Positions 7,719 through 64,000 of a DNA stretch of 64,000 bases are shown piece by piece. A program made the position numbers and the translations under genes. The stretch is from assembly GCA_017520825.1 (NCBI GenBank), contig JAFXEX010000014.1:69118-133117 (forward strand), read 5' to 3'. Under the pieces are notes generated by a model. That model was not told the DNA's origin and ran no database searches. It was given only the letters and a program-made list of their open reading frames with translations. Origin of the DNA: Clostridia bacterium (GTDB lineage Bacteria; Bacillota; Clostridia; Oscillospirales; SIG627). Each line of letters begins with the position of its first letter. Within the stretch, counting starts at the first letter, position 1.

Positions 7719-7738
7719 GATGAAAGGAAGATTTAATT

Positions 7739-8464: not shown

Positions 8465-8499
8465 ATTCTAAAATAAATATTAATAAAGGAGAAGTTGAT

Positions 8500-9459: not shown

Positions 9460-9540
9460 AAATATGTTCTAACATAATAATCTTATGAGTCCGTTGATTA
9501 TATCGATGAAATAAAGCACCACAAAATGAACATAGAAAAA

Positions 9541-9707: not shown

Positions 9708-9804
9708 TTATAGTGTGCCCTTCAGCACGCTATATATTATCATAAAATTTGTGAATTGTCAAGAGGGAATTTGAGAAAAGTTCTAATGTAGGAACCTTAT
9801 ATTT

Positions 9805-10145
9805 ATAAGGCGGGAGTTTTGGAGGGAAAATCGTCAATTGCGAAGCCGTCTCCGACTCACTACACCCTCACACACTGTTCGGGTTTCGTTCCCTGTATGG
9901 CTTGAATTTTTGCTCGATTCGCTAATTCGCTACTCGGCAAAAATCCTCCGCACAGCCGTACAAAGGTACGCCAGTGCGAGCAAGGGGCGAAGAAAATGAA
10001 ATTTTCACAGATGGGAGAAAGCGAAGCTTTCTACATTGGAAAACTTGCAACGCACGTGATGTGTGTCGCACCATACTTTAGTGAGAAACCTTGCAGAAAA
10101 TCATAAAACCTTTTCATTTTCGGTTTTCACCCAAAAGACACGCCA
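9805..10145 (+). mobile_element. L element copy 1 (MITE-like), carrying a nested N element
   Basis: It shares the ...GGCGGGAGTTTTGGAGGGAAAATCG... left end, the GAAGAAAATGAAATTTTCACAGATGG.AGAAAGCGAAGCTTTCTAC core and the TTTTCATTTTCGGTTTTCACCCAAAAGACACGCC right end with other copies. It ends 1 nt from the hemW stop codon. Confidence 0.8.
9850..9954 (+). repeat. N element copy 1 (~105 bp) inserted inside L copy 1
   Basis: It interrupts GAAGCCGT|AGCCGTAC of the L consensus. It is near-identical, in reverse complement, to 29547-29651. Confidence 0.8.
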
Positions 10146-23379: not shown

Positions 23380-23515
23380 GAAAATGCAAAATTAACAATT
23401 AACAGTGCACAGTTAATGATAATTTCGCTATGCGAAATTTTCTTTGATTGAAAATTTGCCAAGGGCAAATTAACGTTCATTCTGCATTGTGCATTGTGAA
23501 TTCTGCATTTAATTG
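23380..23515. repeat. Hairpin/heptad module (H)
   Basis: It contains AATTTCGC-TAT-GCGAAATT (23421-23439), AATTTGCC-AAG-GGCAAATT (23453-23471) and TGCATTG-type repeats (ctgcattgtgcattgtgaattctgcatt). Confidence 0.75.
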
Positions 23516-26948: not shown

Positions 26949-27778
26949 AAGTGGAAAGAGATGCCTTTGCTAAAATAAATCTTACCCTTGAGGTAGGTGA
27001 CAAAAGGCGTGACGGATACCATTCTCTCACCTCGGTTATGGCGAGAATTACCCTTGCCGACAGAGTGACGGTTGAGGAAAATAGCGTGGGTAGTGTGCGT
27101 TTCTACACCGATACCCCCGGCATTGACAAGGAGGACAACCTTTGCATCCGTATGGCAAACGCCTATTTTAAGGCGAGGGGCATGAGTGGGCAGGGAGTGG
27201 ATATAACCCTTGTTACCAACATTCCCATAGCCTCGGGTATGGGTGGTGGCTCTGCCGATTGCGCCTCGGTGCTTGAATGTATGGAGGAGCTTTACGGAGG
27301 GCTTGAGGACGGAGTGCGACAGTCTATCGCGCGCTCGCTTGGTGCCGACGTGCCCTATTGCCTCAAAAAAAAGCCCTGCCTTTGTACAGGCATAGGCGAT
27401 GAGTGTCAGCCCATTGACTGCGCCTCTCTTGACGGTCTTTGGCTCACCGTTTCAAAGGTTGGCGAAAAGCTGTCCACGGGCAAGGTTTACTCCGACTTTG
27501 ACGCACTTCATAAGGACAATACGGAGTATAATCACAACGCCGTTGTAAAGGCGCTTGAAAAGGGTGATATATACGCCCTTGCCCACGGCGTATTCAACGA
27601 TTTTGAAAGGGTAGTGCTTCCTGCCTCCCCTGAGGTTGCCCGAGAGCGTGACAGACTTCTGTCCCTTGGCGCATTGAGGGTGGTAATGTCGGGCGCAGGT
27701 CCTACACTCGTGGCGTTTTTTGATGACGAGGAAAGAGCAAGACAATGCTCGAAGGAAGCATATAAGATTATGCAGTGA
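26945..27778 (+). CDS. ispE: 4-diphosphocytidyl-2-C-methyl-D-erythritol kinase
   Basis: It has the GHMP kinase motif PIASGMGGGSADCA, and its ATGA start overlaps the plsY stop. Confidence 0.9.
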   Translation: MKVERDAFAKINLTLEVGDKRRDGYHSLTSVMARITLADRVTVEENSVGSVRFYTDTPGIDKEDNLCIRMANAYFKARGMSGQGVDITLVTNIPIASGMGGGSADCASVLECMEELYGGLEDGVRQSIARSLGADVPYCLKKKPCLCTGIGDECQPIDCASLDGLWLTVSKVGEKLSTGKVYSDFDALHKDNTEYNHNAVVKALEKGDIYALAHGVFNDFERVVLPASPEVARERDRLLSLGALRVVMSGAGPTLVAFFDDEERARQCSKEAYKIMQ

Positions 27779-27794
27779 TATTCCCTTCGGGAGT

Positions 27795-27870
27795 TAAGGT
27801 TGATTTGCTTCGCAAATCTTCAATCGAAGAAAATTTCGCATAGCGAAATTTTCTTCGATTGTTCATTGTG
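27795..27870. repeat. Hairpin module (H) including a perfect 19-bp-stem hairpin
   Basis: It contains GATTTGC-TTC-GCAAATC (27802-27818) and CAATCGAAGAAAATTTCGC-ATA-GCGAAATTTTCTTCGATTG (27821-27861). Confidence 0.85.
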
Positions 27871-27910: not shown

Positions 27911-29389
27911 TTATCCCAGCTTGTCGAATGCGCGAAGTACCTTCTTGAGCTGAACTCTCGCATTTGGGTATTTCTTTGCGTAGAAAGATTCAAAGTTTTC
28001 AATCTTCTGGTCAATCATATTATTAACGGTGTAGCCGTAGCCGTGGAATCCGTCGTATATGAAGCCGAAGTCGAAGTAACGGTAGTCAAGAATTATATCC
28101 AGAACAACCTTTGATTCGGAGTCACGGAGATATCTTGTTTTAAGAGCCGTTTCATAAATGGTGGGAGTGATGGTCTTCCACGATTCATAAGCCAGCGCCT
28201 CGGTGCAGACACCGATAAATTCAAGGTCCTTAGCCGTCTTGGGCACGCAGGAAACTGTGTGCTCACCGTAAACGTGTGAGTAGTAATTTTTCTGATGCTC
28301 GTCCCACTTGGGATAGGGGAGAATTCCGTAATCGTCCTCAAAGTTACGAAGTCCGTTTGCCATAACGCTTCCAAGGAAAATAGGAGTTATAATGGACTGC
28401 TTGTTAAGGAACAGATAAATCTCCTCGGTGTCATCCTCACTTGCACCGATACCCGTGGTATTGTAGTAGAAGTCAAAGAGGGTCTGCATAATGTTATTGA
28501 TTTTATCGGTTTTGATTGAAAACTGAGGTACACCCTCCTCATCCTTTTGAATGATGGGGTTGTCGAATGCCCACAGCCATGCGTTTGCCTTACTGTTGGC
28601 TCCAAACAGACCACCGTAGAAGTCACCGTTTGAGCGTGTGCCCGAGCCGTCGGAATCGACGTAGATATCCTTGAGCATATCGTACATAGCGTCATAGGTC
28701 CACTTGCCGTCAAGAACCAGCTCGTAGAGGTTGCCAAGGTCGTATGCTGCTGCAAGATTCTTGTTGAATACCAGAGCGCAGGTAGAGGTGATAGAGTTTA
28801 CGTTGATATCTGAAATGGCAAGAATACATTTGCCGTCGTATGTAAGCTCGGTTGAGGTGGAAGCTGCCCACCAAGGCTTTGAAAAGTCAACGTGGGGGAT
28901 ATCGTACCAGTTAAGGAAAAGGTTTTTGGTCGTCAGGTTGGCGCAGGTCATAACGTGAGCGACGATAAGGTCGAATTCATCGGTACCCGAAAGAATAGAC
29001 TTTGACACGTATTCGCTCATGGTGTTGATGTCGGCAGCGTATGCAAGCTCAAGATTACAGTTGAGCTTTGCTTCAACGGCTTCGTTTCTCGTTGCCTTTG
29101 CGTCCTTAACAAGGTCACCCTTGTTTATATCTGCTTCTGCAGGGAACATTTCATATCCGTCGTTGTGGCATACAACTCGGAGTGTCTTGCCCTCAAAATC
29201 ATATTCGTCAAGTCCGTCGTCGGTAGCGGCACGCTCTGCAAAAATGTCGCCCTCCTGAAATACGGCTTCATTGTTATTGTTTGTAGGTTTTTTCGTGGTT
29301 GTTTCCTCTTCACCACACGAGGTGAGTGTCAGCATTATGCAGGAAAGCAACATAACGCACGCTAAAATCAGCGCAGTTAATCTCTTCAT
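27911..29389 (-). CDS. Extracellular solute-binding lipoprotein (large family-1-like), paralog 1, orphan
   Basis: It has a lipobox LTLTSCG and is 492 aa long. By eye, roughly nine in ten residues are identical to the 30028 gene. No transporter genes are adjacent. Confidence 0.8.
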   Translation of the reverse strand: MKRLTALILACVMLLSCIMLTLTSCGEEETTTKKPTNNNNEAVFQEGDIFAERAATDDGLDEYDFEGKTLRVVCHNDGYEMFPAEADINKGDLVKDAKATRNEAVEAKLNCNLELAYAADINTMSEYVSKSILSGTDEFDLIVAHVMTCANLTTKNLFLNWYDIPHVDFSKPWWAASTSTELTYDGKCILAISDINVNSITSTCALVFNKNLAAAYDLGNLYELVLDGKWTYDAMYDMLKDIYVDSDGSGTRSNGDFYGGLFGANSKANAWLWAFDNPIIQKDEEGVPQFSIKTDKINNIMQTLFDFYYNTTGIGASEDDTEEIYLFLNKQSIITPIFLGSVMANGLRNFEDDYGILPYPKWDEHQKNYYSHVYGEHTVSCVPKTAKDLEFIGVCTEALAYESWKTITPTIYETALKTRYLRDSESKVVLDIILDYRYFDFGFIYDGFHGYGYTVNNMIDQKIENFESFYAKKYPNARVQLKKVLRAFDKLG

Positions 29390-29426
29390 TTTTTTCTCCT
29401 TTTCTCATTACAATATTTATAAGAGT

Positions 29427-29455
29427 ATTGTAACACAAGCCCGTTTCTTTTTCAA
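29427..29455 (-). promoter_or_regulatory. Promoter of SBP paralog 1 (TTGAAA-17-TGtTACAAT)
   Basis: On the minus strand the sequence reads TTGAAA, then a 17-nt spacer, then an extended -10 TGTTACAAT. Confidence 0.65.
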
Positions 29456-29546
29456 CCGATTTTTATATTTTAAGCAAAAAAAGAACGGGCTTTATACTAA
29501 AAATGCACAATTAAAAGCCTTTTACTGATGCAAAATGCACAATGCA

Positions 29547-29651
29547 TGTGCGGGGGATTTTTGCCGAGTAGCGAATTAGCGAATCGAGCAAAAATTCAAG
29601 CCATACAGGGAACGAAACCCGAACAGTGTGTGAGGGTGTAGTGAGTCGGAG
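29547..29651 (-). repeat. N element copy 2
   Basis: It is the reverse complement of 9850-9954, with only one or two differences seen by eye. Confidence 0.8.
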
Positions 29652-29750
29652 AATTAAGGATAATTTCGTCGTGCGAAATTTACAATTAATGAAGATTTGC
29701 CAAAGGCAAATCAACCTTAATTGTGAATTGTATATTGTGCATTGTGCATT
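29652..29750. repeat. Hairpin/heptad module (H)
   Basis: It contains AATTTCG-TCGTG-CGAAATT (29662-29680) and GATTTGCC-AAA-GGCAAATC (29694-29712), followed by ttaattgtgaattgtatattgtgcattgtgcatt. Confidence 0.75.
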
Positions 29751-29784: not shown

Positions 29785-30023
29785 AAACGGCGCACAGATT
29801 TGGAGATAAAATCGTCAATTGCGAAGCCGTAGCCGTACTTACGTACGGCAGTGCAAGCAAGGGACGAAGAAAATGAAATTTTCACAGATGGAATAAAGCG
29901 AAGCTTTCTACCTAAAAAGTCTGTGGCAATGAAGAAGTGTGTTCACGCCTTGTGACAGTCGCGAACACACTATTTTAACTTTATTTATATTTTCATTTTC
30001 GCTTTTAGCCCAAATATGAAGCC
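29785..30023 (+). mobile_element. L element copy 2 (Lb subtype, GGCTTCATATTTGGGCT terminus)
   Basis: It has a full core, (G)AAGAAAATGAAATTTTCACAGATGGAATAAAGCGAAGCTTTCTAC, with termini AACGGCGCACAGATTTGG... and ...CCAAATATGAAGCCGTT. The equivalent site is absent downstream of paralog 1. Confidence 0.85.
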
Positions 30024-30027: not shown

Positions 30028-31518
30028 TTATCCCAGCTTGTCGAATGCGCGTATTACCTTCTTGAGCTGAACCCTTGCATCGGGGTATTGCTTTGCGTAG
30101 TATGACTCAAAGTTTTCAATTTTCTGCTCAAGCATATTCTTAACGGTGTAGCCGTAGCCGTGGAAGCCGTCGAATACAAAGCCGAAATCGAAGTAACGGT
30201 AGTCAAGAATTATATCGAGAACAACCTTTGATTCAGAGTCACGGAGATATCTCGTTTTAAGAGCCGTTTCGTAAATGGTGGGAGTGATAGTCTTCCACGA
30301 TTCGTAAGCCAACGCCTCGGCGCAGACACCGATAAATTCAAGGTCCTTGGCAGTCTTGGGTACGCAGGAAACTGTGTGCTCACCGTAAACGTGTGAGTAG
30401 TAATTTTTCTGATACTCGTCCCACTTGGGATAGGGGAGAATTCCGTACTCGTCCTCGAAGTTACGAAGTCCGTTGCCCATAACGCTTCCCAAAGTGATGG
30501 TGGTCATAATGGACTGCTTGTTAAGGAACATAGCAAATTCTTCGAAATCGTCATCGTCGGGGCTTGAGCCGATACCCGTGGTGTTGTAATAGAAGTCGAA
30601 GAGAGTCTGCATAATGTTGTTGATTTTGTCGGTCTTGATTGCAAATTGAGGGATACCCTCCTCGTCCTTCTGAACGATGGGGTTGTCGAACGCCCAGAGG
30701 AATGCATTTGCTCTGTTGTTGATTTCAAACGTACCACCGTAGAAGTCGCCGTTTGAGCGTGTACCCGAGCCGTCGGAGTCAATGTAAACGTCCTTGAGCA
30801 TATTGTACATAGTATCATAGGTCCACTTGCCGTCAAGAACCAGCTCGTAGAGGTTGCCAAGGTCGTACGCTGCCGCAAGATTCTTGTTGAAGGCAAGGGC
30901 GCAGGTAGAGGTAATAGCGTTTACGTTGATATCGGAGATGGCAAGAATACATTTGCCGTCGTAGGTAAGCTCAGTTGAGGTTGAAGCTGCCCACCAAGGC
31001 TTTGAAAAGTCTACGTGGGGGATTTCGTACCAGTTAAGGAAAAGGTTTTTGGTTGTAAGGTTTGCACAGGTCATAACGTGGGCTACCACAAGGTCGAACT
31101 CATCAGTACCCGAAAGAATAGATTTTGAAATGTATTCGCCCATTGTAGTAATGTCGGCAGCGTAAGCAAGCTCAAGATTACAGTTAAGCTTTTCTTCAAC
31201 TGCTTCGTTTCTCTTTGCCTTTGCATCTTTTACAAGGTCGCCCTTGTTTATATCAGCTTCTGCAGGGAACACCTCGTATCCGTCGTTGTGACAAACTACT
31301 CGGAGTGTTTTTCCCTCGAAGTCCCATTCGTCAAGTCCGTCGTCGGTAGCGGCACGCTCTGCAAAAATGTCGCCCTCCTGGAATACGGAGTCGTTGTTGT
31401 TATTATTGTTTGTAGGATTTTTCGTAGTTGTTTCCTCTTCACCGCATGAGGTGAGTGTCAGCATCATGCAGGAAAGCAACATAACGCACGCTAAAATCAG
31501 CGCAGTTAATCTCTTCAT
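30028..31518 (-). CDS. Extracellular solute-binding lipoprotein, paralog 2, orphan
   Basis: It has the same lipobox and architecture as 27911-29389, and is 496 aa long. Confidence 0.8.
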   Translation of the reverse strand: MKRLTALILACVMLLSCMMLTLTSCGEEETTTKNPTNNNNNNDSVFQEGDIFAERAATDDGLDEWDFEGKTLRVVCHNDGYEVFPAEADINKGDLVKDAKAKRNEAVEEKLNCNLELAYAADITTMGEYISKSILSGTDEFDLVVAHVMTCANLTTKNLFLNWYEIPHVDFSKPWWAASTSTELTYDGKCILAISDINVNAITSTCALAFNKNLAAAYDLGNLYELVLDGKWTYDTMYNMLKDVYIDSDGSGTRSNGDFYGGTFEINNRANAFLWAFDNPIVQKDEEGIPQFAIKTDKINNIMQTLFDFYYNTTGIGSSPDDDDFEEFAMFLNKQSIMTTITLGSVMGNGLRNFEDEYGILPYPKWDEYQKNYYSHVYGEHTVSCVPKTAKDLEFIGVCAEALAYESWKTITPTIYETALKTRYLRDSESKVVLDIILDYRYFDFGFVFDGFHGYGYTVKNMLEQKIENFESYYAKQYPDARVQLKKVIRAFDKLG

Positions 31519-31593
31519 TTTTTTCTCCTTTTCTCTTTATAAAGATTTATAAAAATATTGTAACACAAGCCTATTTTTTTTGCAACTGCCTTT

Positions 31594-31680
31594 TTGCAAA
31601 ATAACCATATTTTTGCCATTGCTTTGTTGCAATTTTACCATATTTCATTAATGGTTTTATTGCAATTTTCCCATATATTT
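31594..31680. promoter_or_regulatory. Three direct repeats TTGCAAnnTnnCCATATnT spaced 33 bp apart
   Basis: Copies start at 31594, 31627 and 31660. They lie upstream of a putative TTGCAA(31580-31585)-18-AACAAT promoter for SBP paralog 2. Confidence 0.5.
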
Positions 31681-31681
31681 T

Positions 31682-38173: not shown

Positions 38174-38335
38174 GGCTTCATATTTGGGCTAAAAGAAGCA
38201 ATTGATAATTGAAAATTGAAAGTTGAAAATTCAGGTTGATTTGCTTCGCAAATCTTCAATCAAAGAAAATTTCGCACGGCGAAATTGTCCTTAATTGTGC
38301 ATTGTGCATTGTTAATTGTTAATTGTTAATTAGCG
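38174..38335. repeat. Composite repeat: Lb terminus fragment + 7-nt tandem repeats + hairpins + 7-nt tandem repeats
   Basis: The order is GGCTTCATATTTGGGCTAAAAG, then AATTGAT/AATTGAA/AATTGAA/AGTTGAA/AATTCAG, then GATTTGC-TTC-GCAAATC, then AATTTCGC-ACG-GCGAAATT, then ATTGTGC/ATTGTGC/ATTGTTA/ATTGTTA/ATTGTTA/ATTAG. The last repeats run into the dxr 3' end. Confidence 0.85.
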
Positions 38336-46774: not shown

Positions 46775-46860
46775 GAAAGTTGAAAATTGAGAATTGAAAG
46801 TTGAAAATTAAGGAAAATTTGCCAAAGGCAAATTCACCTTAATTCTGCATTCTGCATTTA
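46775..46860. repeat. Heptad + hairpin module (H) between glgA and glgP
   Basis: gaaagttgaaaattgagaattgaaagttgaaaatt is followed by AATTTGCC-AAA-GGCAAATT (46816-46834), then ttaattctgcattctgcatt. Confidence 0.8.
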
Positions 46861-46861: not shown

Positions 46862-48307
46862 TTAACCCAAAAGACCTGCCGTAAGCTCATATAACTTTAT
46901 ATAGCTATTAGCCGATGACTTCCACGAGAAGTCGGTTCTCATTATCTTATAAACGAGTCTGCGTCTCAGCTCCTCATTTTTGTAGAGCGTGAGCGCTGCC
47001 TCTGTTCGTTCTTTAAGCTCGCCTGCGTTGTAGCCTGCAAAGGTAAAGCCGTTTCCGTTGATTTTGTTATCCTTTATCCAGAAGGGCTTGATAGAGTCGT
47101 AGAGACCACCCGTTTCACGCACTACGGGGATTGCGCCGTAGCGTGAGGCTATCATCTGCGACAGACCACAGGGCTCACTCTTTGAGGGCATAAGGAATAT
47201 ATCGGTAGCCGAATATATTCTCTTTGACAAATCTCTGTCGTAGGTTATGAGAGCTCTTACCTTTTGAGGAAAACGCTCCTGAAGGTAGGTAAAGAACTGC
47301 TCGTAGCGTTCTTCTCCCTTGCCGAGAATAACCAGCTGAATATCGTGGCTTGCTACAATATCATAAATGCAACCTTCAATTATGTCAAGTCCCTTGTGAG
47401 ATGCAAGTCGTGAAATTATTGAAAGAAGGGGCACGTCAGCCCTCTCGTCAAGACCAAGCTCACGCTGAAGAGCCGATTTGCACACTGCTTTTCCGTCGGT
47501 GTTTACCGATGAGAAGGTCTCAGCAATGGAAGGGTCTGATTTGGGGTCGTAATATTTGTAGTCAATGCCGTTGAGTATGCCCGAAAGCTTGTGGGCGTTG
47601 TTGTTAAGGCAGGTGTGCAGACCGTGGGCGTATTCGGGGGTCCGTATCTCCTCGGCATAGCGAGGACTGACCGTGGTAACTCTGTCTGCTTCCTCAATAG
47701 CGCCCTTCATCAGATTTATACATCCGTCGTATTCCATAAGGGAATATTCGTTTTCCGAAAGGGCGAACACGTCACCGAGAATGGAGAAGTCGTACTTTCC
47801 CTGATACTCTATATTGTGTATGGTGAATACGGATTTAATGCCCTGATATTCGGGGCGTTTTTTATATATACGGTTCAGGTATACTACAGTAAGTGCCGTC
47901 TGCCAATCGTGTGCGTGGAGAATATCGGGGTAGAAATCAAGCGCCGACATAGCCTCCATAACTGCCATTGAAAAATAAGCGTAGCGTTCACCGTCGTCGA
48001 AAAAGCCGTAAAGAGACTCTCTCTTGAAGTAGTATTCGTTGTCTATAAAATAGTAGGTGACTCCGTTCTTTTTCAGACTGTATATACCACAGTATTGTTT
48101 TCTCCAGGCAAGGGGAACGGAGATTATTGCCTCTTCATGCATCTCCTTGCGATATTCTTCCTTGATTGCAGAATAAAGGGGAATAATTACTCTTACGTCA
48201 AGGTCATGGCTTTTCGCCAGGGCAGACGGAAGTGAGCCGAGAACGTCACCCAGTCCTCCCGTTGCAGCGAAGGGCATTGCCTCGGCGCCTGCAAATAATA
48301 GTTTCAT
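46862..48307 (-). CDS. glgA: Glycogen synthase
   Basis: It has the N-terminus MKLLFAGAEAMPFAATGGLGDV. The last 8 codons plus the stop (ELTAGLLG*) are encoded by TTAACCCAAAAGACCTGCCGT, a near copy of the La element terminus. Confidence 0.93.
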   Translation of the reverse strand: MKLLFAGAEAMPFAATGGLGDVLGSLPSALAKSHDLDVRVIIPLYSAIKEEYRKEMHEEAIISVPLAWRKQYCGIYSLKKNGVTYYFIDNEYYFKRESLYGFFDDGERYAYFSMAVMEAMSALDFYPDILHAHDWQTALTVVYLNRIYKKRPEYQGIKSVFTIHNIEYQGKYDFSILGDVFALSENEYSLMEYDGCINLMKGAIEEADRVTTVSPRYAEEIRTPEYAHGLHTCLNNNAHKLSGILNGIDYKYYDPKSDPSIAETFSSVNTDGKAVCKSALQRELGLDERADVPLLSIISRLASHKGLDIIEGCIYDIVASHDIQLVILGKGEERYEQFFTYLQERFPQKVRALITYDRDLSKRIYSATDIFLMPSKSEPCGLSQMIASRYGAIPVVRETGGLYDSIKPFWIKDNKINGNGFTFAGYNAGELKERTEAALTLYKNEELRRRLVYKIMRTDFSWKSSANSYIKLYELTAGLLG

Positions 48308-48320
48308 ATAGTATCTCCTG

Positions 48321-48562
48321 ACGGCGTGTCTTTTGGGTTAAAACCGAAAATGAAAAGGTTATAAAACCTTTTACAATAGTTCTCCCAAGAAGTAAAGTGC
48401 GAACACACCACACCTTTGTTATTAGTTTTTGATGTAGAAAGCTTCGCTTTCTTCCATCTGTGAAAATTTCATTTTCTTCGCGTGTTGCTCGGACTGGCGT
48501 ACCCTTGTACGCCTACGCCTTCGCACTCCGCGATTTTCCCTCCAAAACTCCCGCCTTTTACG
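48321..48562 (-). mobile_element. L element copy 3 (La subtype, ACGGCGTGTCTTTTGGGT terminus)
   Basis: Its terminus starts 13 nt upstream of the glgA ATG and directly abuts the glgA RBS (CAGGAG). The full core is present. Confidence 0.85.
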
Positions 48563-48602
48563 GCAGTGTATGGAGAGTTGCGTTGGTTACAAAAATTTAA
48601 TT

Positions 48603-48734
48603 GGAAATTTCCGAAGGAAATTGTCCATAACGTTGACGAAGTCAACATATCGCGTGCGAAGCACATATCGCGTTTGCAAAGCAAACATATCACTCGTCGA
48701 AGACGAATATCACTGCAGAATGCACGGCATTCTG
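48603..48734. repeat. Tandem array of diverse mini-hairpins with GAA/AAA/ACG triloops separated by a constant 7-nt spacer ATATC(G/A)C
   Basis: AATTTCC-GAA-GGAAATT; GTTGAC-GAA-GTCAAC; atatcgc GTGC-GAA-GCAC; atatcgc GTTTGC-AAA-GCAAAC; atatcac TCGTC-GAA-GACGA; atatcac TGCAGAATGC-ACG-GCATTCTG(ta); tatcac. The array ends 2 nt from the glgD stop codon. Confidence 0.85.
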
Positions 48735-48736
48735 TA

Positions 48737-49870
48737 TCACACCATGCTTCCCTTTGAGATAAAGAAGGGCATAGTTTCGTGTCCCGAAAGATTGCGTGAA
48801 TCCTTTATCATTACGTTTTTGTCGGTTATGGTGCAGTTTACCGTGGCGTTATTTCCAACGTAGGTGTCCTGCAAAAGCACGCTGTTGCGTACCACTGCGC
48901 CCTTGCCAACGTGAACGCCTCTGAAGAGAATTGAATTTTCCACGGTTCCCTCAATTACGCAACCGTCTGCTATAAGGGAATTGGTAACCTTTGCCTCGTC
49001 ACTGTATTTGGTGGGGGCAGAGTTACGGAGCTTGGTGTATATACGGCGATTACGGTCACCCCAAAGTCCCTCACGGGCTTCCTCGGTGAGCAGTCTCATA
49101 GAAACGCTGAAATAGCTTTCCAGCGAGGATATATAGGCATACCAGCCGTCATACTTATAGGTGCGTATAAGCTTCTTCTTAAGGTTGCGCTTGATTACGT
49201 CCTTCATAAAGTCGGTGTAGCCGTGAGATACGGAATCGTCTATTATGGCTTCCAGATCCTTGCGTGAAATAACCATAATATTGGTGCTTATTTCCACTAC
49301 TCCGTTTTTGGGCTTATAGCTTGCAATATCTGTCAGAGCGTTGTTTTCACCCACGCTTACAACCTTGACGTTGGAGTCGAAGTGACGCTCGGCAGTATTT
49401 ACCTTTTTGGTAACTATGGTCATATAAGCACCGGAATTCACGTGGTCCTCGATTACTTTACCAAGGTCAATATTGAGAATTACGTCGCAGTCGGACAGCA
49501 CCACGTAGTCGGCGTTACAACGGCTTACGAAGCTCTTTGCGTTTATTATAGCTTCAAGACGGCTTTCGTAAAGTCGGTTTGCCACAGCGTTTTCATAGGC
49601 AGTAACGTAGGGGGGCAAAATCTTGATACCACCCGAACGGCGTGCCAAATCCCAGTCCTTGCCCGTGCCGATATGGTCAAGCAGGGAACGGTAGTTGTAG
49701 TGAGTTATAATGCCTATATTGGTAATATTTGAGTTCACCATATTTGAAAGGGCGAAGTCAACCAGACGGTATCTGCAACCGAAGGGAATACTTGCCATAG
49801 TTCTGAATCTGGTCATTTCGGGAATACAGCCGTCGTGTATGTTTGAAAATATAAGTCCTGCAACAGTCAT
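48737..49870 (-). CDS. glgD: Glucose-1-phosphate adenylyltransferase, GlgD subunit
   Basis: It is a GlgC paralog that lacks the N-terminal GGxGxRL motif, and it occupies the glgC-glgD-glgA position as in Bacillus. Confidence 0.88.
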   Translation of the reverse strand: MTVAGLIFSNIHDGCIPEMTRFRTMASIPFGCRYRLVDFALSNMVNSNITNIGIITHYNYRSLLDHIGTGKDWDLARRSGGIKILPPYVTAYENAVANRLYESRLEAIINAKSFVSRCNADYVVLSDCDVILNIDLGKVIEDHVNSGAYMTIVTKKVNTAERHFDSNVKVVSVGENNALTDIASYKPKNGVVEISTNIMVISRKDLEAIIDDSVSHGYTDFMKDVIKRNLKKKLIRTYKYDGWYAYISSLESYFSVSMRLLTEEAREGLWGDRNRRIYTKLRNSAPTKYSDEAKVTNSLIADGCVIEGTVENSILFRGVHVGKGAVVRNSVLLQDTYVGNNATVNCTITDKNVMIKDSRNLSGHETMPFFISKGSMV

Positions 49871-51062: not shown

Positions 51063-51089
51063 TATGCTTTCCTCCTAATATATAGCCTT

Positions 51090-51335
51090 ACGGCGTGTCT
51101 TTTGGGTGAAAACCGAAAATGAAAGTTTTTTAATTCTTTACATTGTCTCTCCCAAAAGTTAAGCGCGAACACACAACACGAGTGTTGCAAATTTTCTAAT
51201 GTAGAAAGCTTCGCTTTCTTCCATTTGTAAAAATTTCATTTTCTTCGCCCCTCCCTCGCACTGCCGTACAGGTGTACGGCGACGGCTTCGGGATTGACAA
51301 ATCTCCCGCCAAACCTGCTACCTTTTGTAGCGTGT
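51090..51335 (-). mobile_element. L element copy 4 (La subtype)
   Basis: The terminus ACGGCGTGTCTTTTGGGTGAAAACCGAAAATGAAA lies about 28 nt upstream of the glgC ATG, just beyond its GGAGG RBS. Confidence 0.85.
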
Positions 51336-51416
51336 GGTTAGGAATTACTCTTTGCCACAAAAACTTTAACGGGGAATTTCCGAAGGAAATTGTCCTTAAT
51401 TGTGCATTGTGCATTG
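51336..51416. repeat. Hairpin/heptad module (H)
   Basis: AATTTCC-GAA-GGAAATT (51375-51391) is followed by gtccttaattgtgcattgtgcattgttaatt, which ends at the glgB stop codon. Confidence 0.8.
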
Positions 51417-53300
51417 TTAATTTTTAACTTGTTTAAACACTACTGCCGACAAGGGTGGCAGATGTATGCGTATTGCCTTGGAATAGCCACGAAGCATACA
51501 GTCCTCGGTCTTTTTTATACCCTTATTCAGTTTGTTTCCACCACCGAAGTCCTCGCTGTCACTGTTCAGCACCTCTTTCCAGCGTCCCTCGGGTACGCCT
51601 AAAAGAAAGTCGGGATAGTCCACGGGGGTGAAGTTGATTATTACGGCAAGCTCCTTGCCCTTTTTGTCAATTCTCCGATAGGATGCAATGCTCTGCTGGG
51701 CGTTGTCGGCGTCTATCCACTCAAAGCCGTCCCACGTGCCGTCCTGCTCCCATAGGGCAGGGCTTTCAAGATAAAAGGAATTCAGTCGGGCAACGTACTC
51801 CTGAAGCTGAGCGTGCCTTTCATAATCGGTGAGAAACCACTCGATAGCGCCCTCGTAGTCCCATTCCCTGAACTGACCGATTTCGCATCCCATAAAGAGA
51901 AGCTTTTTGCCGGGGTGGGTCATCATATAGGTGAGAAAGGCTCTCGTGCCTGCAAATTTATTTTCATATTCACCTGGCATTCTGTCCAGAAGAGATTTCT
52001 TGCCATGCACCACCTCGTCGTGAGAAATGGGCAACAGATACCTTTCGGAAAAGGCGTAGGACAGTGAAAAATTGATTTTGTTGTGGTGGTACTTTCTGAA
52101 AAGTGGGTCCTCCTCGGCATAGGCGAGGGTATCGTTCATCCACCCCATATTCCATTTAAGAGTAAAGCCAAGGCCACCGTTTTCAAAGCCCGTAACGTTG
52201 GCAAAGGCTGTAGACTCCTCGGCTATGGTCATAACGTCGGGGAAGTCCCTGGCAAGACATCCGTTAAGCTTACCGAAGAACGCCATAGCCTCAAGGCACT
52301 TGTTATCTCCGTAAACGTTGGGCACCCATTCACCCGGGCGCTTGTCGTAGTCAAGGTAGAGCATAGACGCCACGGCGTCAACCCGAAGTCCGTCTATATG
52401 ATATTTTTCTATCCAATAATAAGCGTTTGAAACGAGAAAGCTCTGTACCTCCTCCCGTCCCACGTCAAAGCGTCTCGTACCCCAGCCCTCGTGCTCCATT
52501 CGGTCAATGCCCTGATACTCGTAGAGAGGCTGACCGTCAAACTCGTAAAGTCCGTGAGCGTCCTTGGGAAAGTGGGCAGGAACCCAATCGAGAATGACAC
52601 CGATGCCTGCCTCGTGCATCTTGTCCACGAAATACATAAAGTCCTCGGGCGTGCCAAAGCGTGAGGTGGGGGCGTAATAACCACACACCTGATATCCCCA
52701 GGAGCCGTCAAAGGGATGCTCTGCAATGGGCATCAGCTCAACGTGGGTGTAGCCCATCTGCTTTGCGTACACCGAAAGGTCGTCGGCAAGCTCACGGTAG
52801 GTGAGGTAGGAGCCGTCCTCGTGCTTTTTCCATGAGGCAGGATGCACCTCGTAGATATTGAGAGGGGAGGACATTACCTTGTCTCTGGTATAGCGTTTTT
52901 TTCTGTATTTCAGAAAGGATGCGTCATGCCAAGTATATTCGGGAATGGGAAATATAATACTTGCAGTTTCGGGAGGAGTCTCGGCATAGGTCCCGTAGGG
53001 GTCTGCCTTGAAAAGCTCCTTGTAGCCGTTTTTGATAAAATATTTGTATTTCTGATTGACCGTGGCGCTGTCGCTTACAGCCTCCCATATGCCTGCCTCG
53101 GTTATTCGGGTCATAGGAAGGGCGTAGCAGTCCCATCCGTTAAAGTCGCCTGCAACGGATACGAAGTCTGCGTTGGGCGCCCATACCCTGAAGCAGAATT
53201 TTCCGTTTTCAAGGTGACATCCCAGATAGTCGAAGGCGTGAGTACTCGTTCCCTGGTGAAAGTAGTAGGGAGCAAGGCTTGTGGAATTCTGAGCCGTCAT
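51417..53300 (-). CDS. glgB: 1,4-alpha-glucan branching enzyme
   Basis: It is a GH13 branching-enzyme pattern (GLRVDAVASMLY, MTIAEEST), 627 aa long, and the first gene of the glg cluster. Confidence 0.93.
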   Translation of the reverse strand: MTAQNSTSLAPYYFHQGTSTHAFDYLGCHLENGKFCFRVWAPNADFVSVAGDFNGWDCYALPMTRITEAGIWEAVSDSATVNQKYKYFIKNGYKELFKADPYGTYAETPPETASIIFPIPEYTWHDASFLKYRKKRYTRDKVMSSPLNIYEVHPASWKKHEDGSYLTYRELADDLSVYAKQMGYTHVELMPIAEHPFDGSWGYQVCGYYAPTSRFGTPEDFMYFVDKMHEAGIGVILDWVPAHFPKDAHGLYEFDGQPLYEYQGIDRMEHEGWGTRRFDVGREEVQSFLVSNAYYWIEKYHIDGLRVDAVASMLYLDYDKRPGEWVPNVYGDNKCLEAMAFFGKLNGCLARDFPDVMTIAEESTAFANVTGFENGGLGFTLKWNMGWMNDTLAYAEEDPLFRKYHHNKINFSLSYAFSERYLLPISHDEVVHGKKSLLDRMPGEYENKFAGTRAFLTYMMTHPGKKLLFMGCEIGQFREWDYEGAIEWFLTDYERHAQLQEYVARLNSFYLESPALWEQDGTWDGFEWIDADNAQQSIASYRRIDKKGKELAVIINFTPVDYPDFLLGVPEGRWKEVLNSDSEDFGGGNKLNKGIKKTEDCMLRGYSKAIRIHLPPLSAVVFKQVKN

Positions 53301-53375: not shown

Positions 53376-53704
53376 CACTCCTGTAAATATTTTTGTTCAG
53401 CTTTTTTAAAAATATAGCAATTTTAACAAAGGAAGCGAGAAATATTTCACGAAATTCGCCGTGAATTTATGCTTTTTTAAAAAACCTCAAAAATTTGTCA
53501 CAAAAGCCTCTCTTTTTTGCAAATCAGGGTTAACAAAAATATTTTTTGAAATATATGAAAACAAAGAAAATATTTTGGCAAAATGTCAAAAAAGCACCTT
53601 GATTATTCGGCAACAAAGTTGTAGAATATGTGAAGCAAAGCTTTGGCAATTGAAAATTAAAAATTTACAATCATTACGTATCAAAAGTAATCCTCAATCC
53701 ACGC

Positions 53705-53947
53705 TATAAAAGGCGAGAATTTTGGAGGTAAAATCGTGGAGTGCGAAGGCGTAGGCGTACAATGGTACGCCAGTCCGAGCAACACGCGAAGAAAATGAAA
53801 TTTTCAAAATGGAAGAAAGCGAAGCTTTCAACATCAGAAAAACTTATAACAAGGATGTGGTGTGTTCTCACTTTGCTTCTTGGGAGAGAAAATGCAAAAG
53901 GGTATAAAGCCTTTTCATTTTCGGTTTTAACCCAAAAGACACGCCGT
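53705..53947 (+). mobile_element. L element copy 5 (La subtype)
   Basis: It has a full core. Its right terminus ...CCCAAAAGACACGCCGT is immediately followed by AAGGAG, the RBS of the YitT-family gene. Confidence 0.85.
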
Positions 53948-53958
53948 AAGGAGAATAT

Positions 53959-54798: not shown

Positions 54799-55042
54799 GG
54801 CTTCATATTTGGGCTAAAACCGAAAATGAAATGATAATTATATTTTGACGATAGTGTGTTCGCGAGTGCAATAAAGCGTGAACACACTTCTTCATTGTTA
54901 CAAACTTTTCAAGGTAGAAAGCTTCGCTTTCTTTCATCTGTGAAAATTTCATTTTCTTCGCCCTTTGCTCGCACTGCCGTACACTTGTACGGCTACGGCT
55001 TCGCAATTGACGATTTTATCTCCAAATCTGCGCGCCTTTACG
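54799..55042 (-). mobile_element. L element copy 6 (Lb subtype)
   Basis: It starts 7 nt after the YitT-family stop. It is nearly identical to copy 7 and is followed by another GGCTTCATATTTG fragment (55042-55053). Confidence 0.85.
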
Positions 55043-55100
55043 GCTTCATATTTGAGAATGCACAATGCACTGTGCATTGATAAAAATACGCTTCGTAACC

Positions 55101-55177: not shown

Positions 55178-57925
55178 ATGAAAAAGTTTACTGTTTTAGT
55201 TTTACTTATACTTTCTCTCGTTATGACGGCGTGTGCGCCCTCTGAAAGCGTTTCGGGAGGAAACCAAGACTCTGAGGCAACCGACGTTCAGGGCGAGCAA
55301 GAGGGGGAAGAGCTTGTGGTTCCCGAGGAGCCCGTAGCTTCGGAAGAGCCTGAAATTTATGAAGATTTACCCGTTCCCGAGGAGCCAAAGTATCTTCTCA
55401 CCGTAGAGGGAGTTACCCTTGAAAACGGCGAGAGCTTAAAGGCTTTTGAATTCGGCGAGAGCGTTACCCTCGTTGCCCAGGATAAGGAGAACGCAGTTTT
55501 CCTTTATTGGCAGGAAAATGGAAGCATACTCACAAACGCCAAGACTCTGTCGGTGACGGTGGAAAGCGACAGATTTATAAAAGCCGTATACGCTGAAAAA
55601 TCACAGGGTGAGCTTGAATTCAACACCGAGGACGGCAAGACCTATTACGTTGCAGGTATTGGAAGCGTTTCGGGAGATACCCTTATTATCCCCGATACCT
55701 ATAACTCCAAGCCCGTTACAAAAATTGCAATGACTGCATTTAAGGATAATACGCAGATTAAGACGGTTGTTATCCCCGATACCGTTACAAGCATTGGCAA
55801 GAATGCTTTTTCGGGATGCACCTCACTTGAATATATAAGCATTCCGTCATCGGTGGAGAAGATAGAGGCAAACGAGCTTTCGGACTGCACCTCTCTTAAA
55901 ACCGTAGCCCTTGGAATTAATATGGATATACCCCTTGGCATTAATTCCGTACAGACCGTTTTCATTACCGAAGGAGTTGAGAAAATCAACTTTGAAGGTC
56001 TGAAAAACGTCAAGGCAGTATTCCTGCCCGAAAGCGTTAAGGAAATAGATGACAACGCCTTTAAAAACTGTGCCTCTCTCATTAAGGTTAATATTCCCGA
56101 GGGCATTGAGAGTATCGGCGATATGGCATTCTACGGCTGTCACTCGCTGGGAAATATAGATTTCCCCAAATCACTTAAAACGATAGGCGAATACGCATTT
56201 TTCCAATGCCGTTCAATGACGGAGCTGAACCTGCCCCAGCTTTTATCAATGGGTGACGGCGCATTTGAAGCCTGCAAGGGAATAACTTCTCTCACACTTC
56301 CCGACAGTCTTTTGACTCTGCCCGAATACGCATTTACGGGCTGTGTCGGACTTAATCGCGTTACTCTTGGCAGAAACGCTACGGAGATTGGAAAGAGCGC
56401 CTTCAAAAATTGTGAAAGACTTACTGAAATAGCGCTTCCCGATACTCTTATGGTTATCGGTGGTGACGCCTTTAAGGGATGCGTTGCCCTTTCGGATATT
56501 TCACTTCCCCATAACGTTACTGAAATGGGAGCAGGCGTGTTCGAGGACTGTAGCGCTTTGACCAAGATTTCTTTGCCCGAAAGACTCTACAAAATCAGTG
56601 AATACTCATTCAGAAGCTGTACCTCGCTCAGAGAGATAACCGTTTGCGTCAACACCAAGAAAGCCGAAATGGGAGCGTTTAACGGCGTTGATAAATTCAA
56701 CGCAACGGTGTACTATAACGGTACTCAGAGCGAGTGGGAGAAGAGCTTTGCAGGGGCGTCTGCCTTTGAAGAAATGGTAATGAAATTCCAGGCGAACACC
56801 CACTATGATTTTGACAGTGGACTCAGATATACCTCAAACGGCGACGGTACCTGTCACGTAGGCAGAATAGACGGCGCAGAGCTTACCGTGTCAGAGCTGA
56901 TTATCCCCGAAAAGAGCCCCAAGGGTGATATAATTACCCATATAGACAAGGACACCTTTAACTCTAACCAGAATATCAAGACGCTGGTTATAGAAGCGCC
57001 TCTTGAGTATATTCCTACAGGCGCATTTTCAAACTGCCTTGAACTTGTCAGCGTTACCTTGCCCGAGACGGTTGAAATAATTGATGATACTGCCTTTGCA
57101 AACTGCTATTCTCTTACCTCAATCAATCTTCCCGAGGGTGTGAGAATTATCGGGGACCGAGCATTTGATTACTGTCAAAGCATAGAAAGCCTGGTACTCC
57201 CCACAGGACTTGAAGTAATAGGGGAGAGCGCCTTTACGGGCTGTAAGTCCCTTAAGGAAGTAACCTTTGGTGAAAACGTAAAAAGCGTGGACAGATACGC
57301 ATTCTCCTTCTGTCAGTCGCTTGAAAAAATCAATATGAACTGTGTTGATACCGTGTTCGGCTCAAGCGTCTTTACCACCAATTCCAATGCGTCGGTATAC
57401 TACGGAAAGGGACTGGATGGTTGGCTCTCACTTGATATGAAGTTCGGCTTGCTTTCAAACGGCATGAAGCTCTTTATTGACGGAGCAGAGCTGACTGAGG
57501 TGGTTATACCCGAAAGCGTTACCGAGATAAAGGAATACGCATTTTCAAACGTTAAGAGCCTTAAAAAAGTAGTTTTCCACGATGGCGTTAAGAAGGTCGG
57601 TGGAGGTGCGTTTTACTACTGCTCGGGACTTGAGGAAATTCTTCTTCCCGAAGGATTGACCGAGATTGAGACAGGATCTTTTGCATATTGTGACAGAGTT
57701 TCACGTCTTGTAATCCCTGCAAGCGTTACCTATATGAGCGAGTCCGCCTTCACGGGTACGGGCTTTGACGAAATTTACTACAACGGAACCAGAGACGATT
57801 GGTATTCCGTAAACAGCCTTAAAAAGTCCGGTCTGGGCTATACTGTCATCTGGTACAGTGAGGAACAGCCAACTGCCAAGGGCTATTATTGGCGTTGGGT
57901 GGATTCCCAGCGAGTTAAGTGGTGA
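55178..57925 (+). CDS. BspA-type leucine-rich-repeat surface lipoprotein (915 aa)
   Basis: It has a lipobox LVMTACAP, an acidic linker, and many repeats of the AF..C..L..I.IP.SV..IG..AF type. Confidence 0.85.
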   Translation: MKKFTVLVLLILSLVMTACAPSESVSGGNQDSEATDVQGEQEGEELVVPEEPVASEEPEIYEDLPVPEEPKYLLTVEGVTLENGESLKAFEFGESVTLVAQDKENAVFLYWQENGSILTNAKTLSVTVESDRFIKAVYAEKSQGELEFNTEDGKTYYVAGIGSVSGDTLIIPDTYNSKPVTKIAMTAFKDNTQIKTVVIPDTVTSIGKNAFSGCTSLEYISIPSSVEKIEANELSDCTSLKTVALGINMDIPLGINSVQTVFITEGVEKINFEGLKNVKAVFLPESVKEIDDNAFKNCASLIKVNIPEGIESIGDMAFYGCHSLGNIDFPKSLKTIGEYAFFQCRSMTELNLPQLLSMGDGAFEACKGITSLTLPDSLLTLPEYAFTGCVGLNRVTLGRNATEIGKSAFKNCERLTEIALPDTLMVIGGDAFKGCVALSDISLPHNVTEMGAGVFEDCSALTKISLPERLYKISEYSFRSCTSLREITVCVNTKKAEMGAFNGVDKFNATVYYNGTQSEWEKSFAGASAFEEMVMKFQANTHYDFDSGLRYTSNGDGTCHVGRIDGAELTVSELIIPEKSPKGDIITHIDKDTFNSNQNIKTLVIEAPLEYIPTGAFSNCLELVSVTLPETVEIIDDTAFANCYSLTSINLPEGVRIIGDRAFDYCQSIESLVLPTGLEVIGESAFTGCKSLKEVTFGENVKSVDRYAFSFCQSLEKINMNCVDTVFGSSVFTTNSNASVYYGKGLDGWLSLDMKFGLLSNGMKLFIDGAELTEVVIPESVTEIKEYAFSNVKSLKKVVFHDGVKKVGGGAFYYCSGLEEILLPEGLTEIETGSFAYCDRVSRLVIPASVTYMSESAFTGTGFDEIYYNGTRDDWYSVNSLKKSGLGYTVIWYSEEQPTAKGYYWRWVDSQRVKW

Positions 57926-57926
57926 C

Positions 57927-58169
57927 GGCTTCATATTTGGGCTAAAACCGAAAATGAAATGATAATTATATTTTGACGATAGGATGTTCGCGACTGTTAG
58001 AAAGCGTGAACACACTTCTTCATTGTCACAGACCTTTTAAGGTAGAAAGCTTCGCTTTCTTTCATCTGTGAAAATTTCATTTTCTTCGCCCCTTGCTTGT
58101 ACTGCCGTACACTTGTACGGCTACGGCTTCGCAATTGACGATTTTATCTCCAAATCTGCGCGCCTTTAC
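57927..58169 (-). mobile_element. L element copy 7 (Lb subtype)
   Basis: It starts 2 nt after the LRR stop codon, in the same orientation as copy 6, and differs from copy 6 at only scattered positions. Confidence 0.85.
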
Positions 58170-58265
58170 AGCTTCATATTTGCGATAAAACCGAAAATGA
58201 AAATATAAATAAAGTTAAAGTAGTGTGTTTGCGTTTGCAATAAAGCGTGAACACATCACTTTTTG
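58170..58265 (-). repeat. L element copy 8, terminal fragment only
   Basis: AGCTTCATATTTGCGATAAAACCGAAAATGAAAATATAAATAAAGTTAAAGTAGTGTGTTTGCG...GCGTGAACACA matches the terminal ~95 bp of Lb copies 2 and 9. Confidence 0.7.
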
Positions 58266-58504: not shown

Positions 58505-58590
58505 AAATTTTTAATCATTGAAAATTTGCCAACGGCAAATTAACATTAATTGTGAATTGTGCATTGTTAATTGGCAAAGCGTTGTGCATT
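58505..58590. repeat. Hairpin/heptad module (H)
   Basis: AATTTGCC-AAC-GGCAAATT (58523-58541) is followed by ttaattgtgaattgtgcattgttaattg. Confidence 0.75.
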
Positions 58591-61104: not shown

Positions 61105-61295
61105 TGGTTAAATTTGCCCTGACGGACAGGTTAAATTGCCATAGGCAGTTAAATATCGGCTTTGCCGATGGGATATTTTTCAAACAAGGGTTGAAAAGTT
61201 ATGGTTAATTTGCTTTGCAAATCTTCAATGATTGTAAATTTCGCAAAGCGAAATTGTCCTTAATTGTGCATTGTTAATTGTGAACTGTGTATTTA
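61105..61295. repeat. Extended hairpin module (H)
   Basis: It contains ATCGGC-TTT-GCCGAT, ATTTGC-TTT-GCAAAT and AATTTCGC-AAA-GCGAAATT, then gtccttaattgtgcattgttaattgtgaactg. Confidence 0.8.
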
Positions 61296-61324
61296 TTTTC
61301 GTTCTCACCCAAAAGACACGCCGT
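61296..61324 (+). repeat. La terminus fragment
   Basis: TTTTCGTTCTCACCCAAAAGACACGCCGT. Confidence 0.65.
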
Positions 61325-61377
61325 AAACACTAAATGTTGTATAGTTTTTTAAAAAAAATTGGAATATTATACCATAC

Positions 61378-63954: not shown

Positions 63955-64000
63955 GGCTTCATATTTGGGCTAAAACCGAAAATGAAAAACAAATAAAGTT
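63955..64000 (-). mobile_element. L element copy 9 (Lb subtype), truncated by the window end
   Basis: GGCTTCATATTTGGGCTAAAACCGAAAATGAAAAACAAATAAAGTT starts 9 nt after the spoIIE stop. Confidence 0.75.

Follow-up and report, generated by a model that had tools for sequence, protein, structure and literature searches.

Gut-1 was described from human-gut metagenomes only, was reported as "not in any sequenced organism", and was judged from covariation to be a likely non-coding RNA that is not cis-regulatory; no function was proposed (Weinberg et al., 2010, Genome Biol 11:R31, PMC2864571). Rfam types the family as "Gene; sRNA" (small RNA), and the consensus of its model consists of three hairpins with GUGAAAU between them. 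Here we describe an array of short hairpins and heptamers between glgD and glgA (the glg array) in a stretch of 64,000 nucleotides from a Clostridia bacterium (contig JAFXEX010000014.1, positions 69,118 to 133,117; the window). The initial annotation had read this array as the inverse of CRISPR logic. It is neither that nor a new kind of element, as the pattern matches Gut-1 of Rfam, and the glg array is very probably a divergent, sub-threshold member of that family.

Identity of the array between glgD and glgA

When 471 nt over the glgD-glgA spacer were scanned against Rfam by E-value, the minus strand matched Gut-1 (RF01706) at 48715..48642 (43.2 bits, E=2.7e-7). In gathering mode, a scan of the whole window returned only a tRNA and listed no Gut-1. 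In the cmscan alignment, three hairpins and four heptamers of the glg array are matched to model positions 1-77, and hand alignment to the Gut-1 seeds places four mini-hairpins and five heptamers. The full Gut-1 layout is found at 48625-48740, where a long hairpin is followed by four mini-hairpins, framed by five heptamers of the GUGAWAU type, or GYKAWAT for the unit in general (Table 1). The Gut-1 seeds likewise begin with a longer hairpin ahead of the mini-hairpins, as does the array at L007 (comparison loci are given as L plus a number; coordinates without such a label are those of the window). The seed alignment of Weinberg et al. (2010), taken with its flanks, contains GUGAUAU variants, and an array, an AAUUCGC-type hairpin and heptamer tandem repeats form the same composite there as in the window. 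Mini-hairpin 1 (UCGUC/GACGA) is homologous to UCGCC/GGCGA of most Gut-1 arrays. The L007 array, which is also next to glgD, scored 44.8 bits, and arrays of the same layout in IMG/VR contigs scored above the Rfam gathering score (L358, 77.7; L395, 77.5; L403, 65.1; L257, 58.2; L391, 53.4 bits). Arrays with GUUAAAU heptamers reach 33.7 bits and those with GCUAAAU 22 bits, so the Gut-1 family is wider than the Rfam model.

Both flanking genes are on the minus strand (glgD, 48737-49870; glgA, 46862-48307) in a glgB-C-D-A-P cluster. As initially annotated, six consecutive hairpins are present between them at 48606-48736, perfect or near-perfect and with stems that are all different. The proposed constant spacer ATATC(G/A)C was also found, as ATATCGC at 48647 and 48665 and as ATATCAC at 48687 and 48707, and the motif GCGAAGC or its complement, noted in several units, is present at 48654-48664 and 48436-48452. 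One of the six hairpins, AATTTCC-GAA-GGAAATT, had been counted as a member of the array; it is a real hairpin but belongs to a different module, and an identical copy at 51375-51391 adjoins another repeat copy of the kind described below. Of the 10 pairs in the long leading hairpin, one reads G.T on the plus strand and A.C on the sense strand. Mini-hairpin 4 has the counterparts GUUGCC-UUC-GGCAAC in L007 and UGACC-UUC-GGUCA in L475, and the terminal heptamer GUUAUGG is the same in L007, in L185 and at 61195-61201 (GTTATGG, on the plus strand there). Open reading frames (ORFs) called across the array (48482-48757 on the plus strand and 48469-48693 on the minus strand) fall in repeat DNA.

Table 1. 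Positions of the glg array, of further arrays and of the repeats associated with them.
Feature	Position	Strand	Sequence	Remarks
AATTTCC hairpin	48606-48622		AATTTCC-GAA-GGAAATT (plus); AAUUUCC-UUC-GGAAAUU (minus, sense)	separate AATTTSSC module, outside the Gut-1 unit
Terminal heptamer	48625-48631		CCATAAC (plus); GUUAUGG (minus)	closes array; junction to next module
Mini-hairpin 4	48632-48646		GTTGAC-GAA-GTCAAC (plus); GUUGAC-UUC-GUCAAC (minus)	
Heptamer	48647-48653	minus	GCGAUAU	
Mini-hairpin 3	48654-48664		GTGC-GAA-GCAC (plus); GUGC-UUC-GCAC (minus)	plus strand reads GTGCGAAGCAC, includes GCGAAGC
Heptamer	48665-48671	minus	GCGAUAU	
Mini-hairpin 2	48672-48686		GTTTGC-AAA-GCAAAC (plus); GUUUGC-UUU-GCAAAC (minus)	
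Heptamer	48687-48693	minus	GUGAUAU	
Mini-hairpin 1	48694-48706		TCGTC-GAA-GACGA (plus); UCGUC-UUC-GACGA (minus)	
Heptamer	48707-48713	minus	GUGAUAU	aligned to GUGAAAU of the Gut-1 model
Long leading hairpin	48714-48736		TGCAGAATGC-ACG-GCATTCTGTA (plus); UACAGAAUGC-CGU-GCAUUCUGCA (minus)	
Degenerate fifth heptamer	48734-48740		GTATCAC (plus); GTGATAC (minus)	includes glgD stop codon TGA, 48737-48739
Second Gut-1-like array	61105..61181	plus	heptamers GUUAAAU x3 and GGGAUAU	Rfam 33.7 bits, E=5.7e-5; scanner match
One-unit version	27775..27799	plus	GUGAUAU UCCC-UUC-GGGA GUUAAGG	
Full-type examples	seeds BAAZ01000095, BAAZ01000322, BAAZ01000187, BAAZ01000085; loci L185, L220, L391, L395, L403			
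Core repeat copy at glg	48314..48600	minus	ends ..CAUUUUCGGUUUUAACCCAAAAGACACGCCGU	dispersed; ends just ahead of glgA ribosome-binding site; BLAST against the window
Core repeat copies	9804-10148, 29796-30020, 48314-48600, 51086-51399, 53661-53954, 54808-55050, 57923-58170			
Core repeat fragments	58179-58209, 61292-61330, 63964-63988			
Heptamer-period arrays	23390-23404, 23478-23509, 29528-29546, 29719-29750, 38200-38231, 38291-38331			
Heptamer-period arrays (continued)	46775-46809, 46842-46858, 51396-51433, 58548-58573, 61260-61281			

A chance origin of the array was ruled out by shuffles, fold z-scores, a scan of reversed sequence and triloop enrichment. The spacer-hairpin pattern matched once in the window and never in 100 shuffles. 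Triloop hairpins of the form C-GAA/TTC-G occur 17 times in the window, 14 of them in intergenic regions, and this is about sevenfold the number in 100 dinucleotide shuffles (2.4 ± 1.3, maximum 7). Run over 1.75 Mb of related and unrelated loci, a scanner for heptamers plus hairpins picked up four arrays; the reversed sequence yielded none. All six hairpins between glgD and glgA were seen in the minimum-free-energy fold of either strand, except that in the region of mini-hairpin 3 an alternative 4-bp pairing is preferred. The z-scores of the folds were -4.1 (RNA, minus strand), -3.95 (RNA, plus strand) and -5.1 (DNA, plus strand), and none of 200 shuffles equalled them.

Other arrays and their architectures

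The second array of the window is placed after the stop codon of a homoserine O-succinyltransferase gene. In the one-unit version, the stop codon of the upstream ORF lies inside the heptamer GTGATAT at 27775-27781, as it does for glgD in the glg array. The one-unit version, the second array and the glg array hold one, four and five units, respectively, and neighbouring units in L257 are near-duplicates. Units are gained and lost, a point that the initial annotation had raised as a question. Related units had also been listed from other intergenic regions. Of these, ATCGGC-TTT-GCCGAT at 61155 is indeed part of the second array, but most of the others (AATTTCGC.., AATTTGCC.., GATTTGC..) represent the AATTTSSC module.

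Gut-1 arrays were also found in phage-like contigs of IMG/VR, with two arrays each in L257 (3817-3892 and 4298-4379) and L464 (~1700-1860 and ~12110-12270; this pair is paralogous) and one at L220:1375-1559. The L257 and L220 arrays lie within phage structural operons, where they follow the portal gene, the gene of a Prp-like protease or that of a head-tail connector, the last being downstream of the major capsid gene; in L257 the genes around the arrays are portal, Prp-like and connector. Wherever the upstream ORF was clear (11 arrays), the array came immediately after its stop codon and on the same strand (three in the window, L007, L185, L220, two in L257, L462, L463 and the second of L464). 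Pattern scans were less productive. With CCATAAC..ATWTMRC..ATWTMRC, which is too degenerate a pattern, one of 120 metagenome loci (L185) was a real array, and all 19 matches of GTGAWAT..GTGAWAT..GTTATGG in viral sequence were due to chance.

Two architectures can be distinguished. Half-type arrays include that of glg, and full-type elements consist of [hairpin-GUGAWAU]n followed by [AUWUCAC-hairpin]n and have two-fold symmetry. The heptamers of the two halves covary in full-type elements, GUGAUAU occurring with AUAUCAC and GUGAAAU with AUUUCAC, and in one such element heptamer-heptamer helices are predicted (minimum free energy -93.2 kcal/mol, z -8.7). Full-type elements at L358:~9700-9760 and in L395 (a matching stretch on the other strand) lie beside a tRNA-Met/Thr/Gln cluster, directly after a sequence that resembles a tRNA 3' end (..GGTTCGAGTCCAACAGGGGGAGCCA; not called by ARAGORN) and then a terminator. 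The tRNA-end-like sequence may be the remnant of an integration site. As a lead only, half-types tended to lie between co-oriented genes and full-types between convergent genes, so that each incoming transcript would read [hairpin-GUGAWAU]n.

Covariation and array evolution

Covariation was measured in 14 arrays that were aligned by hand without gaps around the hairpins, with loops N-padded and outer pairs in register. A gapless alignment was preferred because MAFFT misaligned stems of unequal length. In this set 97.5% of 275 stem cells form standard pairs; double-sided changes are seen at 21 of 32 pairs (111 cells). None of 500 shuffles reached the observed pairing and one reached the observed count of double-changed pairs; in slid controls 36-55% of cells paired. 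Loops on the GUGAWAU strand are of the type UNC/UNNC (UUC, 10; UGC, 8; UUU, 7; plus UGAC, UAAC, UUUC and others), and the mirrored 3' halves of full elements have GNA/GNRA loops (GAA, AAA, GCAA, GUAA, GAGA). The initial idea of shape rather than sequence is right in that it is the fold that is conserved: stems vary and are compensated, and loops, closing C-G pairs and 7-nt spacers are kept.

A second idea, that hairpins are generated repeatedly from a template, is not needed, because the first and last mini-hairpins are homologous across arrays of many sources. Several copies within the seed alignment have one hairpin series in common although the adjoining genes differ, and the same holds for copies in a single phage-like contig. 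From the homologous end mini-hairpins and these series it follows that arrays are inherited and copied whole. The arrays thus share a common ancestor and were copied as whole units, with single units occasionally duplicated or lost, and their stems drift by fully compensated Watson-Crick changes.

The heptamers are uniform within an array and differ between arrays, even within the window. This uniformity probably arises by slippage or gene conversion between direct repeats, which folded hairpins would set side by side. Footprints of transposon excision, or small insertions that each duplicate a 7-bp target, would also explain uniform heptamers. That explanation was rejected, since the first and last hairpins are homologous even between arrays whose heptamers differ.

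Insertion at the glg locus

The closest genomes are metagenome-assembled genomes of uncultured gut or rumen Oscillospiraceae/Eubacteriales, with GlgD identities of up to 93%, and the contigs with exact matches to window proteins are metagenome assemblies. SpoIIE is encoded in the window, which points to a spore former. In most relatives the glgD-glgA gap is 3-30 nt, compared to 429 nt in the window. Five loci have a spacer of 3-23 nt (3 nt in L008 and L009, 13 nt in L472, 23 nt in L013, and L012), and GlgD identity to the window is 92% in L013, 90% in L472, 93% in L007 and 89% in L475. Because the gap is short in close relatives, the 429-nt spacer is an insertion, placed directly after the glgD stop codon. 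L007 and L475 have homologous arrays next to glgD with the heptamers GUGAAAU and GCUAAAU, respectively; the number of hairpins is the same and their stems are different but fully compensated. A different insertion is present at this site in L006. Together with the short gaps elsewhere, this shows that the site is a hot spot and that the element is polymorphic. Look-ups of exact proteins (GlgD, GlgA and homoserine O-succinyltransferase) returned only contigs of equal spacer length, and the contigs matching GlgD are 99.8-100% identical over the spacer, so no polymorphism was seen at the level of strains. For glycogen metabolism the insertion probably matters little, as close relatives lack it.

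What was inserted into the glg operon is a mosaic intergenic repeat made up of the array, then the AATTTCC hairpin and then a core of ~250 nt. BLAST of the intergenic region found at least seven copies of the core repeat in 64 kb, ~230-260 nt long and in both orientations relative to genes. Copies end in either ..CCCAAAAGACACGCCGT or ..CCCAAATATGAAGCCGT, which defines two subtypes, and the 5' border echoes the respective end sequence. In the consensus fold, two closing helices are invariant, and compensatory changes occur in a GCCGTAC-nnnn-GTACGGC hairpin. G-U variants are present in the core repeat, in contrast to the Gut-1 array, and it had no match in Rfam. In L475 a four-hairpin array (2753-2830; GCTAAAT four times; Gut-1 22 bits) lies inside a core-repeat copy, and a portion of the core (..TTTGGAGAAAA / ..TTTCGAGATAAAA) recurs on each side of the array. 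A near-identical segment of ~105 nt (CTCCGACTCACTACACCCTCACACACTGTTCGGG...GGCAAAAATCC) is found at 9850-9954, within a core copy, and at ~29560-29665 in another spacer, and has the appearance of a small repeat nested in a larger one.

The AATTTSSC module has semi-conserved stems, variable loops and heptamer tandem repeats on its flanks. Eleven arrays of heptamer period (AATGCAC, AATTAAC, GAAAATT and similar) occur in intergenic spacers or at their edges. These runs flank AATTTSSC-nnn-GSSAAATT hairpins, and where runs bracket a hairpin pair, one side is the reverse complement of the other. Heptamer-period runs and AATTTSSC modules are also present downstream of the Gut-1 arrays in the 2010 seed alignment.

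Possible roles of the array

A promoter scan of the minus strand of the glgD-glgA spacer gave no promoter-like site and nothing above shuffle level. A terminator scan of the spacer gave one weak consensus match at 48709-48691 (tail ATATGTTTGC), no more than in shuffles. Having no promoter or terminator of its own and following a co-oriented ORF, the array should belong to the polycistronic glg RNA. The operon mRNA would then carry a row of short stable hairpins with single-stranded G/AU-rich linkers between them. Their most likely effect, similar to that of REP/BIME elements, would be to block 3'-to-5' exonucleases or, after cleavage in a linker, 5'-exonucleolytic RNase J; alternatively they would mark sites of linker cleavage. 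Such a barrier would let the cistrons on its two sides differ in stability; failing that, the element would persist largely as a selfish repeat. The window encodes RNase J, which makes mRNA decay of the Firmicutes type plausible. Considered alone, a barrier or processing role at the RNA level is a tentative proposal to which we give somewhat less than an even chance. The reading that we favor overall, and regard as modestly probable, blends Gut-1-type identity with an mRNA barrier or processing role.

Several observations weigh against this reading. The Gut-1 score of the glg array is under the Rfam gathering score of 50. The insertion is dispensable, being absent altogether in close relatives. 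Among the 275 stem cells there are no one-sided changes and one G-U, so that pairing is nearly all Watson-Crick, which is unusual for a selected RNA and fits DNA palindromes. A wider census of 524 pairs, read on the sense strand, had 499 Watson-Crick, 3 G.U, 11 A.C and 11 other pairs; as a test of strand, 3 G.U against 11 A.C are few counts and give no support for sense RNA. The thermodynamically special GNA/GNNA loops are on the antisense (AUWUCAC) strand, and the loops in mRNA sense are UNC/UNNC. Finally, full-type elements are symmetric and match Gut-1 on both strands.

A DNA-level element is the rival that fares best, although we consider it somewhat unlikely. Here the palindromes would fold in single-stranded or cruciform DNA with RNA hairpins as a by-product, and the array would spread as DNA, its 7-nt direct repeats serving as substrate of a structure-specific recombinase or transposase or of replication slippage. 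The Watson-Crick-only covariation with A.C above G.U on the sense strand fits such an element, as do the symmetry of full-type elements, the matches on both strands, and the C-G-closed GNA/GNNA loops, which are always on the ATWTCAC strand. Loops of the d(GCGAAGC) type are exceptionally stable in DNA. The polymorphism of the insertion among relatives with ~90% GlgD identity, the same hairpin series beside different genes, the variable unit number with near-duplicate neighbors, and heptamers that are uniform per array but different between arrays of one genome also argue for it. However, co-orientation with the upstream ORF in all 11 cases is unexpected for a DNA element and needs a link to the direction of transcription or replication. 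Pfam scans of 48 window proteins gave no transposase, integrase or HUH enzyme, neither a target-site duplication nor a terminal inverted repeat was identified, and hairpins of only 4-7 bp are small for known hairpin-binding transposases. Strict gene co-orientation favors RNA, whereas Watson-Crick-only covariation and antisense GNA loops favor DNA.

A more specific form of the DNA-level rival, which we rate as plainly improbable, is that Gut-1 is not an sRNA but a self-maintaining DNA-level array of Oscillospiraceae and phages. Its unit would be a palindrome plus a 7-nt direct repeat that expands, contracts and homogenizes by slippage once its hairpins have folded, and a structure-specific enzyme would act on the strand with GNA loops. 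If this were true, Gut-1 would be a new class of structured mobile repeat that has been wrongly filed as an RNA gene.

Two further rivals are less likely than a DNA-level element. In one, which seems very unlikely, the single-stranded heptamers displayed between hairpins would be a binding platform, either for an oligomeric protein that binds RNA or DNA, which they might titrate, or for complementary heptamers (AUWUCAC) of another RNA. The heptamers are the best-conserved part of the arrays, the 5' and 3' heptamers are matched in full-type elements, and they are paired in the predicted fold of one full element (z -8.7). The glg array, however, is a half-type with no complementary heptamers in cis, and in the 64-kb window no cis or trans cluster of complementary heptamers was found, counts being at chance level. 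In addition, GTGATAT, GCGATAT and GTTAAAT occur in one genome and GTGAAAT and GCTAAAT in close relatives, which argues against a single trans factor of fixed specificity. The other rival, a stand-alone sRNA gene as in the Rfam typing, has scarcely any chance of being correct even though terminator-like hairpins precede some full-type copies and the family was rated a likely non-cis-regulatory non-coding RNA (Weinberg et al., 2010; PMC2864571), because the array begins within the stop codon of glgD, further repeat modules and the ribosome-binding site of glgA come after it, the minus strand of the spacer lacks a promoter-like site, and elsewhere copies are found between the cistrons of operons.

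Other features of the window

Positions 1-9460 have a G+C content of 34-38%, compared to 43-50% in the rest of the window, and this region ends near a minus-strand tRNA gene at 9636-9707. Its products are an SbcC/RAD50-like ATPase with weak PADLOC matches to LmuB and mad3, a SPASM radical-SAM protein, a protein with a BRCT domain (PADLOC PDC-S48) and several that have no family. The region is a candidate defence or mobile island. Elsewhere, the upstream regions and first codons at 29390-29510 and 31519-31681 (..GGCTTGTGTTACAATA..GAGAAAAGGAGAAAAAAATGAAGAGA) are near-identical. They belong to genes without Pfam matches (27911-29389 and 30028-31518) that look like paralogues with duplicated promoters. 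A 33-nt tandem repeat is present at 31577-31645.

Comparison with known systems

Several known systems were compared with the array and ruled out. Intrinsic or tandem terminators were rejected, as there is no G+C-rich hairpin with a U tract beyond shuffle level, and so were the repeats of type III antitoxins, since the units are not identical and no toxin gene follows. In integrons, the attC site consists of one imperfect hairpin, 55-140 nt long and with RYYYAAC/GTTRRRY at its boundaries, and an integrase is encoded nearby. The array instead has multiple perfect hairpins of 11-23 nt, GTTATGG does not fit GTTRRRY, and no integrase was found among the 48 window proteins scanned. The array resembles CRISPR in that short constant units, uniform within an array, alternate with variable ones. 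CRISPR was nevertheless ruled out: the constant unit is 7 nt and non-palindromic, compared to repeats of 23-50 nt with unique non-palindromic spacers in CRISPR, there is no leader, and the variable units are palindromes homologous between loci, not acquired foreign DNA. Pfam scans of 48 window proteins detected no cas domains.

Other systems share single traits with the mosaic repeat. STRR sequences of heterocystous cyanobacteria are intergenic tandem heptanucleotide repeats of unknown function without interleaved hairpins. The pure heptamer runs of the mosaic elements are similar to these, although the phylum and the sequences are different. BOX elements of Streptococcus pneumoniae (boxA-boxB(n)-boxC) are modular and intergenic, have a predicted fold, lie near gene ends and vary in the number of internal units. 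Their boxB units are 45 nt long with a conserved sequence, however, and do not follow the grammar of heptamer plus variable hairpin.

REP/BIME elements of enterobacteria are multi-copy intergenic palindromes after stop codons or between cistrons, and are co-transcribed and stabilize the upstream mRNA. They form mosaics with other short motifs, and their presence varies between relatives. The window repeats likewise occur in multiple copies between genes and at their ends, and relatives differ in whether they have them. In REP elements the palindrome has a single conserved sequence and alternates in orientation. In the arrays, by contrast, every stem differs, also between arrays, and only linkers and loops are kept. 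No RAYT (Y1 transposase) was found among the 48 window proteins scanned with Pfam, which represent 64 kb of the genome.

Besides its sub-threshold score, the glg array differs from Gut-1 in being a half-type without the mirrored AUAUCAC half and in sitting within an operon, not as a free-standing gene. The likenesses are consecutive short hairpins with covarying stems, heptamer linkers GUGAAAU or GUGAnAU, U-rich tri- to pentaloops closed by C-G, a longer leading hairpin and an origin in gut metagenomes. To what was known of Gut-1, the present comparison adds a host lineage (spore-forming uncultured Oscillospiraceae/Eubacteriales, and phage-like contigs) and a defined position directly after stop codons, within operons and co-oriented with the upstream ORF. 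It also places Gut-1 as a module of a mobile mosaic repeat with half-type and symmetric full-type architectures, and reveals an odd evolutionary signature of Watson-Crick-only covariation and heptamers that change in concert per array. An sRNA of unknown function thus becomes the subject of two testable hypotheses, a barrier or processing cassette in mRNA or a structured repeat at the DNA level.

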